Shown one piece after another: positions 3,406-21,261 of a DNA stretch of 64,000 nucleotides; position 1 is the stretch's first letter, and each line of letters begins with the position of its first letter. The translations under genes were made by a program, and so were the position numbers. The notes under the pieces were generated by a model. That model was not told where the DNA came from. It worked only from the letters and a program-made list of their open reading frames with translations, and ran no database searches. The DNA is from Eledone cirrhosa (lineage: Eukaryota), in contig OZ024743.1 in assembly GCA_964016885.1 (NCBI GenBank), forward strand, positions 40,486,001 to 40,550,000. Reading direction: 5' to 3'.

Positions 3406-3583
3406 AAACTTTAATCTGTTATTTTAATAAATATATATATATATATATATATATATATATATATATATTTATATATATATATATATATATAGGTATACAA
3501 ATCTACGGTTCTTATATATTTGATATATATTTATCCTTATCGAGCCCTCTTTGGATTTTAGTCTTCAAATTTATTATTATTAC
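3406..3583 (+). mobile_element. Inverted family A pLTR fragments separated by (TA)n
   Basis: 3406-3432 and 3503-3583 are reverse complements of parts of 2635-2751. Confidence 0.8.
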
Positions 3584-5173
3584 TATATATATATATATAT
3601 ATATATATATATATATATATATATATATATATGTATATATATATATATATATGGGGGGAAGTATAAATATTGTTCGATTCACAATGCTATTAAGTCCCAA
3701 CTCCACATTACACTTCTATAGCCTGATGTTAAAAAGGGCAAAACTCCGCCCTTAGTCCTACAAGTAATTATTCATAAATAACTGACATATAGAAAGATAT
3801 ATAAATGAAAATAACTTTCAATTCTCAATTCTGTTATGTGGAAACCTCAATATGGCAGTAATAAAAACGGATTCATAGCTTTTAATCTATTTAGTGTACA
3901 CTTGGAGATAGACACTTTATCCGTTGAAGTGCTAAAATATAAAAGTTATCATACAAATGTCAAAATCTCCGGAAATTAGCTGGCTTTACGTATTGTTAAT
4001 GGGAAGTTATCATGCTGTGTTAAATTGAAAATGGTCATAATTGGCTTATGTTTCCATAGGAGCTTTGATGCGCAAACTCACTAGAAGTGGCGAAATCTAC
4101 TGAGAACAGCAATGTCGATAATTTAGCGAAAGGTTTAAATTGCATGTAAAATTAAGGAAATTTCTTATGAAAATGATTTCAGTCAATTAAGCATCTTTAT
4201 CATGTGTTTGGGATAAAATTATTGCAAAGTGTAAAAGATTAGAGATTTCAGAGCTCTGATAGAGAGATTTTTATTACAAGCACATTAATTGTAATGGCAA
4301 ACCCATTGAATATAAGGATGAGGCTATACTAAGTGGTCATTTGCTTTGGCTACTAAGCTAAAGTTAACTTCTTCTGCAAGGGGAAATCATAAAGGTTACC
4401 TCATTTCATTATGCTATATCCTGAAGCATATCAACATCGATAACTACTTAGACTATGGTCGATAAAAGTCAATGATTTTTCTGGCGACATCTTGTTAATA
4501 TCAACATATATTTAATATATATTCAAACCTAATAAACATTGTTCTTCTGCATTCTTGAATATATAATAGTTACTTATTCGAATTGCAGATGATCTCGTCA
4601 CATATGTATGTTTCAGAATTGCAAATTTAGTTTTAAATTCAATTTGAGTTTTAGAGACACATTTCCCAAAATAGAAAACCTATGTCTACACAGGGGCAGA
4701 CATGACGGCATGGTTAAGCAGTTCGCGTCACCACCATGTTGTTATAGAGCAAAATGATGAAGTCACTCATTTAGAAAACACACATGCTTTCTAGATGACC
4801 ACGTCACCCTTTTGTTCCAGTTGTAGCTGAGCGAAAACAGTCGACAATTCTTTCGGACATCTTGCTCTTTATCGAGACTGTGTATTCTCGTCACTGCTAC
4901 TCGCTGGAACTATGTATACATCCGCTGATTCGCCTAATTTGAAATAGATCTCGTCCTGTAGAATCCATTTCTATAGGAAATAAGGTTATATATATATATA
5001 TATATATATATATATATATATATATATTATTTATTAGAAAGTGAGGTTTTTTTTGTTAAATGAAAAATAACCGAGGTGTCCTACACGAGTGAAAGTTATA
5101 AAGAAAAAAATATGAAATCGAAAATGCAACTGGAGTCTTATTTTATAAAAAAATATATATATTTATTTGGTTC

Positions 5174-5209
5174 CTTTACCGGTTTCGCAGTTCTTCTGCT
5201 TTTCAAAAG
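5174..5209 (-). ncRNA. Minimal hammerhead, U3-A8 core variant
   Basis: Reverse complement of the motif at 5287-5322. Confidence 0.7.
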
Positions 5210-5286
5210 CAGATTTGAGAGTAAGGGTCTGTGGTTTTTCTCACATCTGATGTGAAAAAAACCACAGACCCTCCATCTCAAATCTA

Positions 5287-5322
5287 CTTTTGAAAAGCAG
5301 AAGAACTGCGAAACCGGTAAAG
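5287..5322 (+). ncRNA. Minimal hammerhead, U3-A8 core variant
   Basis: ctt TTGAAAA gcag-aagaa-ctgc GAAA ccgg TA aag; palindromic helix III (accggt), GUA site. Confidence 0.72.
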
Positions 5323-5409
5323 GAACCAAATAAATATATATATTTGTTTATAAAATAAGACTCCAGTTGCATTTTCGATTTCATCTTTTACACATATATA
5401 TATATATAT

Positions 5410-6620
5410 AGTGGTAGAACACTGGAAGGTAATATCCGTAGTGGTAGAGCACTCAATCCATGGGACGAGTTAGGTAGAAGTGGTTACACAACAGTTAGTT
5501 CACCATACCGAGAACAATTATTTCACCTTAGCGGATCCTCAGCTCGTAATGGACATCGTTATACGGAACAGGAAGGACAACCGTACGAACGCGCATGTGC
5601 AAAAACGATCACTTCACACTAAATTGCGTGCGAGAGGTGTAAGGGAGATAACTGCGAAAGTCCGAAAGTTTCTGGTTAATAAGAAAATTAGGATGATGTT
5701 GTAATTCAATCCGGAGCTTTGTAGTTAGGTAAGAGGTGTTTCGAGACTTGTGGACAACGTGTGAAGAATTCATTTCGCGTGTTTAGGCAATCGCTATTGC
5801 GTAATCTCTTTAGAACATTTATTCGTTGATCAATACATAATTCACACGACGGATTTCCCCTTGCGTATGGCTTGGACTTAGTGATGGCTTTCCATTGAAT
5901 GGAGTAGTCTATACTTGAGTCCTTGAGGGACCATACGTGGCTCGCGAGTTTCATGGATGAACGTCTGTCCGGGTACCTAAAGGTCGATTGGTGGTTCACG
6001 AAGCGTTCTTTAAATCGGCCCTCCGCCATACCCACATAGGATTTGACCTCCTGTGGTTGATTTTGTCGGTTGGAAGTGACCACAGCTTCATAAACTACAG
6101 TGGGTGTGTTGTATTGCTGTTGAAGAGGTCAAGCTTAGGGCTTATGGCAAGAGCACCCTTGGTGGTGTGTTTCTCTTAGGGCTGTTGGAGATGTGGGCTT
6201 TCATGTTATTAGCGCAGGAGTATCCTAGTTTTACTTTATGTCGGTTAAAGATAGAGCGGTGTTTATGACCTATGGGAAAGTGTCTATCTAAGAGGGCTAG
6301 AAATTGTTTGCCTACATTGGTTTTAACGTTGGGTTAGAAGGGAGGAGAGACCCAGATAGTTTGTCTATGTTTACGCTTTCTTTTCTTATTGCTGTGGTTG
6401 TTAGTGGGAGAGTAAGTGATAGGTTGCGAGAAGCCGCTGTTAGCTAACGCCGTGTTATAGTAGGGTGACGCCCTATCAAAGATAGCCTTATTGGAGAAGA
6501 GGTTTGAGATTCAAGTACGAAGTTTCTAAAAACAGTGGAAGGGTGGCATGAGTCCTTGTGAATGTAATTGATTTTTTCATTTAGCTTATGGAAGGGTCTA
6601 TAGGTATGTGTCTGTATAAA
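5410..6620 (-). mobile_element. 5'-truncated Naiad-like PLE (RT thumb plus GIY-YIG)
   Basis: ORF 5706-6083: SYVGMAEGRFKERFVNH..CELC..LNTRNE..CPQ. ORF 6444-6683: YIHKDSCHP. Confidence 0.88.
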
Positions 6621-7129
6621 TATATACATTGTAACGTGTCGTTTGTTTTGTGGTTTCTGTTTACTTTTCACATACATACACACTTATATACACACACACA
6701 CACACATATATATATATATATATATATATATATACTTATATATGTATATATATGAATTTATATATATATATATGCATATGTATATATATATATATATATA
6801 TATTCTTATATATGTATATATATGAATTTATATATATATATATATATATATATATATGCATATGTATATATATATATATATATATATATATATATATATA
6901 TATTCATATATGTACATATACATATATATATATGTATATATATATATATATATATATATATATATATAGATAGATATATAGATATATACATATATATAAA
7001 CTATAAAAATGCTATGCAGACGTTTAAGAGCTTTTAAAGAAAATCCACTGAAGGTAAAACAATAACAAAGGAGTGGACTGCGTTCGATCGTCATAAAATC
7101 CGTCCCCACCCCCTGCTAACAGCTAATCT

Positions 7130-20030: not shown

Positions 20031-20049
20031 GCATACTTTCAGCCCATTA

Positions 20050-20610
20050 CGTTCTGATGTCAAATCAGGCCAAGGTTAGCTTTCTCTTTCACCCATACAG
20101 ATTCGGTTGAATAAAGTACCAGAAACGCACTGGAGTCAATGTGATATCATTATTAAATTGGTAATTGGTAATTGGCGGTGGATTGGCAGTATCGGTAGAG
20201 GGTCGGACGCCATCCTTTCCAGCATAGTTACGTCCCTTTACGATCTGAGTTCAAATCCCGCCGAGGTTGACTTTGCCTTTCATCCTTACGGGGTCGATAA
20301 AATAAAGTACCAGTAATGCACTGGGTAATTGCTGGCCTTGTGCCTAAAGTAGAAACAATTATTAAATTGGTAATTAAGAACAAATTTTCTAGCAGAAAAT
20401 TATCATAGAATTTTTTTTTTAATGAGTAGATCATCGTCAGACAATATGCTTCACAACATAGAGTTATGTCTCTTTACACTCTGAGTTCAAGACCCGCGAG
20501 GTTAACTTTGCCTTTCTTCCTTACGGTGTCGATAAAATAAATCACCAGTAATGCACTGGCGTCGATTTAATCACCTTTCCCGTCCCCCAAATTGCTGGCA
20601 TTGTGCCTAT
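20050..20610 (+). mobile_element. Cluster of three tRNA-derived SINE copies
   Basis: B-box-like gagttcaaatccc followed by gactttgcctttcatcc..gtcgataaaataaagtaccag; also found at 37440, 43370 and 46770-48340. Confidence 0.8.
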
Positions 20611-20658
20611 ACTAGAATTCATCATCATCATTCTTCTTCTTATTATTATTATTTCTTC

Positions 20659-20746
20659 GTAGTAGTAGTAGTAGTAGTAGTAGTAGTAGTAGTAGTAGTA
20701 GTAGTAGTAGTAGTAGTAGTTGTTGTTGTTGTTGTTGTTGTTGTTG
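20659..20746. repeat. (TAG)n/(TTG)n trinucleotide repeat at SINE tail
   Basis: Direct inspection. Confidence 0.95.
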
Positions 20747-20811
20747 TGGTTGTACTGCACATTTATACATATACATACGCAAACACATACATATATATAT
20801 ATGTATGTGTT

Positions 20812-21042
20812 TGCAAACAACACGGACACTCTATCTCAAAATTATTTTTGAAAAGCTGTTAGAAATGCGCAACCGGTAAAAACTTAAAAACTTAAAACCA
20901 CAACTGAATACTAACCCATACAATCACTAATACTCTTTTATTCCTAATTAAACCATTTTTCAACTGTGAACAATTTGTCAGCATTTTCTATTCCGTTTAC
21001 CAATATTTAATAACTTGTGTGTTACACTTCTATTCTCTTAAC
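20812..21042 (+). mobile_element. Neptune-like pLTR tail with GCAA-type hammerhead motif (20845-20882)
   Basis: Matches 57655-57877; ends in (TA)n. Confidence 0.82.
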
Positions 21043-21147
21043 TATATATATATATATATATATATATATATATATATATATATATATATATATATATATA
21101 TATATATATATATATATATATATATATATATATATATATACATATAT

Positions 21148-21261
21148 ATTTACTAAAATAACAGATTAAAGTTTTGCTCTACGGTTCTTATATATTTGAT
21201 ATATATTTATCCTTATCGAGCCCTCTTTGGATTTTCGTCTTCAAATTTATTATTATTACTA
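21148..21261. mobile_element. Two head-to-head family A pLTR mini-fragments
   Basis: 21148-21174 (minus) joined to 21173-21261 (plus), with (TA)n on both sides. Confidence 0.8.

Follow-up and report, generated by a model that had tools for sequence, protein, structure and literature searches.

Penelope-like reverse transcriptases (RTs) are the closest kin of telomerase. In Poseidon of Anolis carolinensis (PAc; Frangieh et al. 2024, PMC11167929), reverse transcription starts at two internal sites, which form the two ends of the 'tail'; nicking and extension take place on both target strands, and a dimer is predicted. How an internal start site is chosen, and how a one-sided tail and an inverted arm originate, are left open in PMC8557442 and PMC11167929. 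Here we analyse family A, a family of Penelope-like elements in a 64,000-nucleotide (nt) stretch of Eledone cirrhosa DNA (GCA_964016885.1, contig OZ024743.1, positions 40,486,001 to 40,550,000), hereafter the window. We consider it fairly probable that copies of this Hydra-type family end two or three bases before conserved stem-loops that likely dock the RT, that both cut ends of the (TA)n target prime complementary DNA (cDNA), and that this gives rise to head-to-head arms, with the shorter arm sometimes stopping at the predicted cut of a hammerhead motif. Internal priming and inverted 5' pieces were known already (PMC8557442, PMC3846280). What appears to be new is a stem-loop at each end.

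Family A and PAc have in common two internal starts that bound an optional tail, an AT-rich target and a hammerhead upstream of the starts. In PAc, the start sites lie 111-118 nt inside the open reading frame (ORF), in an AC-rich stem-loop, and the tail measures 30-40 nt (PMC11167929), whereas in family A both lie in the leader at a distance of 89 nt, and each closely precedes one of the two copies of a conserved stem-loop. With the Hydra clade (Craig et al. 2021, PMC8557442) family A shares the RWx and xKT motifs, a CxCX5C linker, a C-terminal GIY-YIG-type domain, (TA)n targets, a hammerhead in the pseudo-long terminal repeat (pLTR) and an inverted, 5'-truncated piece beside the 5' end. It differs in its U4A hammerhead core, which takes the place of the canonical one, and in its unit of about 3.3 kb. 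As judged from shared features, family A is a Hydra-type Penelope-like retroelement, although its core (CAGAAGA), at the place homologous to the relatives' motif, is not the canonical one by which the Hydra clade is recognised. The Naiad clade, with an N-terminal GIY-YIG domain and no hammerhead, was ruled out because family A has a C-terminal endonuclease (EN) and does carry a hammerhead motif.

Two fixed ends beside twin stem-loops

Family A was mapped to 12 pieces in the window by self-comparison and by a search with a real copy, the near-full-length one at 1-3406 on the minus strand (3406->1). This copy serves as reference (ref = 3407 minus window position); its 5' pLTR spans 3406->2634 and its 3' untranslated region (UTR) is cut by the window edge. 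All ten 3' ends in the window that run into TA fall at one of two places, End1 (3433, about 8135, 18740, 21147, about 40755 and 55368) or End2 (3585, 21261, 53000 and 58262). There are 24 TA dinucleotides available in ref 560-800, of which the window ends use only two places. Among the copies that reach End1 are a short one at 8086-8135 (+), which begins at ref 633 and spans the predicted cut; a 5'-truncated one with an intact hammerhead motif at 17357-18741 (+; core at 18672); an older truncated one with a degenerate End1 at 40592-40759 (+); and a 5'-truncated one carrying the RT thumb, CxCX5C linker, EN and hammerhead motif at 53361-55369 (+; core at 55300). A truncated copy with a hammerhead motif (52776-53000, +; core at 52843) reaches End2.

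Sequence reads point to the same two places. Two contig sets (X1 and X2), which are one sample and possibly the source of the window, and two runs of restriction-site-associated DNA (RAD) sequencing from a second study (X11 and X12) were aligned to window 2450-3010; seven further sets (X4-X10), which had small shares, were left out. In all four runs, among the 24 rows listed of 1325, loose ends into (TA)n heap at 2723/2724 and at 2634. At 2723 and 2634, the rows listed count 145 and 90 loose ends in X1, 145 and 80 in X2, and 2512 and 637 in X12; for X11 they give 2337 at 2723 (with 471 more at 2724) and 574 at 2634. Read-end pile-ups at 2609, 2649 and 2953/2956 lie at or near AATT-type sites and were set aside as library cuts rather than RNA or cDNA ends.

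An earlier note on this DNA had proposed that family A copies end at two places only, and both the window ends and the reads from two studies agree. Its list gave the right places, with one correction (3583 should be 3585). As to its further statement that every end runs into (TA)n, degenerate sequence is found at the ends listed as 8132 and 40755, and the end at 55368 meets only about three TA units. One family A piece falls outside the list, an inverted one at 58401-58432 (+) that ends at neither place, at ref 652-655. The proposal that reverse transcription starts internally, downstream of the ribozyme and primed by cut TA-rich DNA, is supported, with an in vitro precedent in another Penelope-like element (PMC11167929). 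Specifically, the segment from End1 to End2 is the published Penelope 'tail', and internal priming at two sites is already known (PMC11167929). The ends are, however, more than the AT-rich points they were taken for: both sit at a fixed distance from conserved stem-loops, and AT-richness alone is not what sets them.

The order in the leader is hammerhead motif (ref 595-668), 29 nt, End1 (684), stem-loop 1, End2 (773), stem-loop 2 and ATG (815). Stem-loop 1 (GCUC...UC GAGC; window 2675-2720, minus strand) has End1 2 nt upstream; its lower stem carries one change in the reference copy and is intact in the others. Stem-loop 2 (GCUC C...G UU GAGC ACU; 2615-2630, minus strand) has End2 3 nt upstream and lies 38 nt before the ATG. 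The same form recurs, duplicated, in the leaders of relatives: GCUC, an upper stem, a 2-nt 3' bulge, GAGC and then AC. Among 37 leaders with at least 150 nt of upstream sequence, 24 have two stem-loops, six have one and seven have none, and as a control 423 of 427 ORF windows lack any. Taking one locus per cluster, 22 of the 52 clusters of relatives have the pair ahead of the start codon.

The upper stem of stem-loop 1 was not required by the search pattern. With one locus per cluster, its successive Watson-Crick pairs are formed in 22/22, 19/22, 13/20 and 7/17 cases (means after shuffling: 13.3, 8.2, 6.6 and 4.7); the upper stem of stem-loop 2 is weaker (22/22, 12/22, 10/19 and 1/9). Only the 2-nt bulge register works, 97% of the cells in the alignment are paired, and 18 cells are changed on both sides. 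The ends of relatives follow the stem-loops as well: of 18 same-family 3' ends, 15 precede one by 0-6 nt (binomial 3e-15 on a rough 7% null), a count that leaves out 11 of 29 rows (two inverted ORF pieces and nine cross-subfamily alignments ending by divergence). A window family at 12335-16255 has an ACUC/GAGU variant of the stem-loop, with its End1 7 nt upstream.

Several points weigh against a stem-loop that sets the start site. Shuffles reach the observed pairing in 0 of 500 trials and slid registers are all lower, but these controls ignore relatedness. The invariant GCUC/GAGC stem was in the search pattern and thus cannot count as covariation. Three of the 18 relatives' ends fall elsewhere, 27, 62 and 62 nt upstream of a stem-loop. 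The distance is about 12 nt for End1 of family D (window 8570/34055; ACUC/GAGU form), and about 15 nt for the end of one relative, L068. Taking these points into account, we suggest that each stem-loop likely docks the RT and fixes one start site, and we regard the tracking of both start sites by a twin stem-loop across the clade as a firmer result than the cleavage discussed below.

Rfam returned no match for the stem-loops, and the twin motif was not found in the text, as distinct from the figures, of the open-licence papers searched; the accessible text of PMC8557442 yielded no mention of it, and the words 'hairpin' and 'stem-loop' gave no matches in one supplement. A small covarying stem-loop, present twice and with starts at a fixed distance, makes start-site choice testable with short RNAs. 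Its spacing also gives curators a rule for placing element boundaries inside (TA)n.

Two further kinds of junction involve the tail. At window 2675, the base that closes stem-loop 1, about 1000 reads per RAD run pass from the tail into a single shared sequence, possibly a multi-copy derivative, which recurs near window 40810-40840. Some 500-600 reads per RAD run connect the tail, at 2724 and 2713, to CCCGAGCAACGCCGGG...CTAGT, which resembles a Helitron-type end, and to a second repeated sequence.

Head-to-head arms

The earlier note had singled out two very short pieces, 3406-3432 (+) and 21148-21174 (-), as independent copies. Both exist, and both begin at AAACTTTAATCTG, within 2 nt of the predicted hammerhead cut once microhomology is allowed for (ref 655-657 and ref 656-658, respectively). 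Neither is an independent copy: each is an inverted arm joined 5'-to-5' to a longer one. The first (mini arm 1; 3406-3433, +; ref 655/657-684, ending at End1) stands head-to-head with the near-full-length minus-strand copy 3406->1. The second (mini arm 2; 21147-21174, -; ref 656/658-684, ending at End1) is joined to a tail arm at 21167-21261 (+), of which the stretch 21172-21261 (+) runs to End2 from ref 685-687, where mini arm 2 was primed, and retains an intact stem-loop 1 at 21176-21221. The complete unit, 21147-21261, is flanked by TA at either end and consists of the reverse complement of ref 656-684 followed by ref 685-773. End1 arms of 12-26 nt were not found in the window.

In L1 twin priming, the inverted arm begins where the forward arm stops. 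The unit at 21147-21261 resembles this arrangement; it differs in that the second site is fixed and marked by structure, as opposed to a chance internal match. End2 arms stop at ref 685-699 in two window cases, at 21172 and at 3502, the latter being the start of a piece (3502-3585, +) that halts in the 5' strand of stem-loop 1, at about ref 689-690. Among the reads, 15 of 105 joints were listed, 11 of them opposite-strand (inversion) joints, and three of these 11 (2708, 2713 and 2714) are End2-arm stops of the same kind. In one relative, L018, the End2 arm likewise ends in stem-loop 1.

The two arms have the two start sites as their outer ends. This arrangement favours priming on both strands of the target, the likely origin of the head-to-head arms. 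Inverted pLTRs of Penelope in Adineta vaga (PMC3846280) also have head-to-head arms, a one-sided tail and palindromes or microhomology at the joint, but they were explained by self-priming on an antisense template. A further End2 copy in the window (58262-58410, -) is folded back at the TTAA of the stem II loop; the inverted piece at 58401-58432 (+) covers ref 627-652/655, stops on the 5' side of the predicted cut and runs into non-TA DNA.

Two observations on arms and starts stand apart from these. Window 3489-3501, between a TA run and the End2 arm at 3502, matches the 3' UTR of the element itself over 13 nt in inverted orientation; this may be a second, very short arm for which priming took place away from the standard sites. 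Three near-full-length relatives (L054, L068 and L023) start close to End1 or End2, as if a circular or unit-length template had been copied just once.

We envisage that each stem-loop would bind one protein subunit and fix one start site; lying 3' of its start, it would remain uncopied from that site. By analogy with PAc, both target strands would be primed, the starts being End1 and End2 of a single RNA or lying on two different RNAs. As in twin priming, cDNA started at End2 would often halt at the presumed seat of the End1 complex, the 5' strand of stem-loop 1. On an RNA that has cleaved itself, cDNA started at End1 would reach the new 5' end and run off after 27-29 nt, whereas most cDNAs would use uncleaved or re-ligated RNA; this step is the weakest. 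Finally, the two cDNA ends would anneal via short microhomology. In a stronger form, which we think unlikely, the duplicated stem-loop of the Hydra clade would be a two-seat dock: a dimer on one RNA would prime both (TA)n strands at fixed distances, and the inverted 27-29-nt arms would record in vivo cleavage by the U4A hammerhead. Were this true, one RNA module would explain the tail, the inverted pLTR and the role of the ribozyme.

The hammerhead motif and the question of cleavage

The hammerhead motif is of type I (window 2739-2812, minus strand), with the core CAGAAGA (U4A), U10.1.U11.1, G15.2-C16.2 and a CUU triplet, and its predicted cut lies between 2752 and 2751. Stems I, II and III have 5+8, 3 and 5 pairs, and GAAA and UH are present. 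Stem I, with five proximal pairs including G611-C659 and eight distal ones, fixes the register and hence the cut, predicted between ref 655 and 656. In family A as in relatives, the motif lies ~200 nt ahead of the ORF; it has no match in Rfam. Its fold is at -11.3 against a minimum of -13.4, a gap of 2.1 kcal/mol; unconstrained folding of the region does no better than shuffled sequences (z -0.3 to 0.2) and so gives no support. Both U10.1.U11.1 and U4C are described as tolerated in hammerheads, a natural U4C variant being functional in a viroid (PMC3088659), and metazoan Penelope hammerheads cleave poorly in vitro (PMC4209133). A literature search on U4A hammerheads found nothing relevant.

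As regards an excess of 5' breakpoints at the cut relative to its neighbours, the test set in the earlier note, 2751 ties for the most covered position among the joints listed, and 2792 and 2797 equal it. Three of the 11 opposite-strand joints listed cover 2751 (mean 0.65), a level reached by 3 of 77 positions exactly and by 10 of 77 with 1 nt tolerance. One of them, 2714/2751, has no microhomology, carries a 29-nt arm and is found in both RAD runs; the cut would also accord with the joints 2746/2797 and 2747/2748. In addition, an X1 contig (2751->2733) carries iterated mini-like letters in between, and one full-length relative, L050, begins 5 nt after its cut. Contig starts near cuts in two other relatives (L004, +1; L028, -4) were rejected as assembly breaks.

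Several observations weigh against cleavage. The tied positions 2792 and 2797 lie at the 5' edge of the hammerhead, and two of the three joints at 2751 can also be attributed to microhomology in stem I or the quasi-palindrome. Because arms shorter than about 19-25 nt are difficult to detect in reads, the counts are pushed toward the cut zone. Seven window copies (2634, 8086, 18741, 40759, 53000, 55369 and 58262) span the cut without a scar. Read depth shows no step at the cut (in X11, 3976+3513 for bins 2735-2753 and 3544+3785 for bins 2754-2772), and the 24 loose-end rows listed include none at 2751. Among relatives, none of six same-family 5' junctions falls within 2 nt of the cut (+92, -38, +5, +30, -44 and +122), these six having been hand-picked, with TA-run and cross-family rows dropped by eye. 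None of eight inverted junctions in other hammerhead-bearing window families, read by eye, ends at its own cut, though in one such family a mere 10 nt separate End1 from the cut, so that minis would be invisible. The 65 motif hits in 76 related loci comprise 55 CUGA, one CCGA, one CGGA and eight U3-A8 cores (the latter mostly doubtful), and none has CAGA. For PAc, cleavage was unnecessary in vitro and no RNA reads ended at its cut (PMC11167929). Finally, if the RT stalled at the base of stem III, its stop would be expected within 1 nt of the predicted cut.

The minis' stop at the cut is only suggestive of ribozyme cutting, and hammerhead cleavage as a minority route seems to us just short of evenly balanced. 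The earlier claim that the copies are genomic evidence of an active variant ribozyme is not established. In R2 a ribozyme cut, there HDV-like (hepatitis delta virus-like), likewise marks genomic 5' junctions (PMC3774820), but such junctions are the main class in R2 and a minority class at most in family A. If the minis do record cleavage, they would provide in vivo evidence for a Penelope-like hammerhead, and for one with an unusual core.

Cleavage could instead be a regular step of the cycle, the minis ending at ref 656 where an active U4A hammerhead had cut the RNA, with run-off followed by a jump in the manner of a strong-stop product. This would account for the start of both minis within 2 nt of the cut with none shorter, for the joint 2714/2751 and its lack of microhomology, and for the piece at 58401-58432 that stops at the other side of the cut; the small gap between the hammerhead fold and the minimum, and the working U4C viroid variant (PMC3088659), fit as well. 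Yet cut-site ends are a minority class, neither read depth nor the relatives and other families show a corresponding signal, the motif's 5' edge is equally hot, and scar-free jumps would be needed in 7 of 7 crossing copies. We lean slightly against it.

Alternatively, there was no cleavage, and either the RT stalled at the base of stem III or the ends joined through stem-I complementarity (AGTTT/AAACT) and a TTAAA-C-TTTAA quasi-palindrome over the cut. The joints 2746/2797 and 2747/2748 each have 5 nt of ambiguity from these features, small-palindrome fold-backs are common in the window (58401; families D and F) and described for Penelope elements (PMC3846280), and relatives lack U4A. Counter to this, stem III is weak with its 5 pairs, the joint 2714/2751 lacks microhomology, and the partners of both window minis are unrelated to stem I. 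We offer this explanation tentatively and are inclined to doubt it.

A second cluster of 5' breakpoints lies at the upstream edge of the hammerhead (window 2789-2818, L018 and L059), beside acceptor-like AG motifs. It is conceivable, if rather unlikely, that the template RNA often begins at this edge, by a transcription start or a 3' splice site, and that cut-site ends are incidental. Breakpoints at ref 609-618 make up 6 of 22 listed joint ends, L018 and L059 break at -38 and -44, acceptor-like pyrimidine-AG motifs occur at ref 597, 611 and 617, and an intron of D. virilis Penelope ends at helix I (PMC4209133); but the U-rich stretch there also gives microhomology, and the minis themselves would go unexplained. 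Most improbable is that TA microhomology alone sets the ends and the stem-loops, which sit just before the ATG, serve translation control or packaging: both ends do match the target by 2-4 nt of TA, but longer TATATA runs in stem-loop 1 (ref 701-716) serve no window copy as an end and are absent from the loose ends listed, and the 15 of 18 relatives' ends keep their spacing despite unrelated flanks, some of them non-TA.

Coding sequence and pLTR of family A

The ORF of the reference copy, which apparently encoded the RT and the C-terminal GIY-YIG-type domain, is broken (ATG at 2592 to about 465, minus strand). It nevertheless aligns end to end with RT-EN proteins of relatives, with identity up to 52%. 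The YIG-type domain is visible as V*KC...YIG, the linker reads CNCRNRVDC, and the motifs RWR and EK / KT, the last two flanking a frame break, correspond to RW[KR] and DKT in the relatives' alignment. A Pfam search of the family A pieces gave no match. Exact pattern scans of metagenome and viral contigs detected no family A DNA, and a protein scan of the viral contigs confirmed none. A near-perfect 75-nt palindrome (window 2056-2130) lies in the RT region of the long copy, and the match to related proteins is interrupted there.

Family A targets (TA)n, both in the window copies and in the reads, and has the optional 89-nt tail as well as inverted 5' arms. Its pLTR forms a partial tandem: ref 1-134 is repeated at window 128->3, and the pLTR matches the 3' ends of the copies at 17357-18741 and 53361-55369. 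Within the pLTR, all long copies carry a 135-nt tandem duplication of ~80% identity (window 2877-3150).

Neighbouring repeats

At least six other Penelope-like families with hammerhead motifs occur in the window, many as head-to-head fold-backs. Their hammerheads lie at 8629(-), 11394(-)/11788(+), 12532(-)/12667(+), 28864(+), 32473(-), 55662(-) and 58123(-)/58147(+), and some have odd cores (U3-A8; U15.2-A16.2 with a palindromic stem III). Copies of one family (window 11611, 62395 and 63146) share a boundary ~220 nt upstream of the cut, and one of them is folded back exactly there. The window also contains a remnant of a long interspersed nuclear element (LINE) with an APE endonuclease at 59633-61565 on the minus strand (Pfam Exo_endo_phos, with a weak RVT_1 match).

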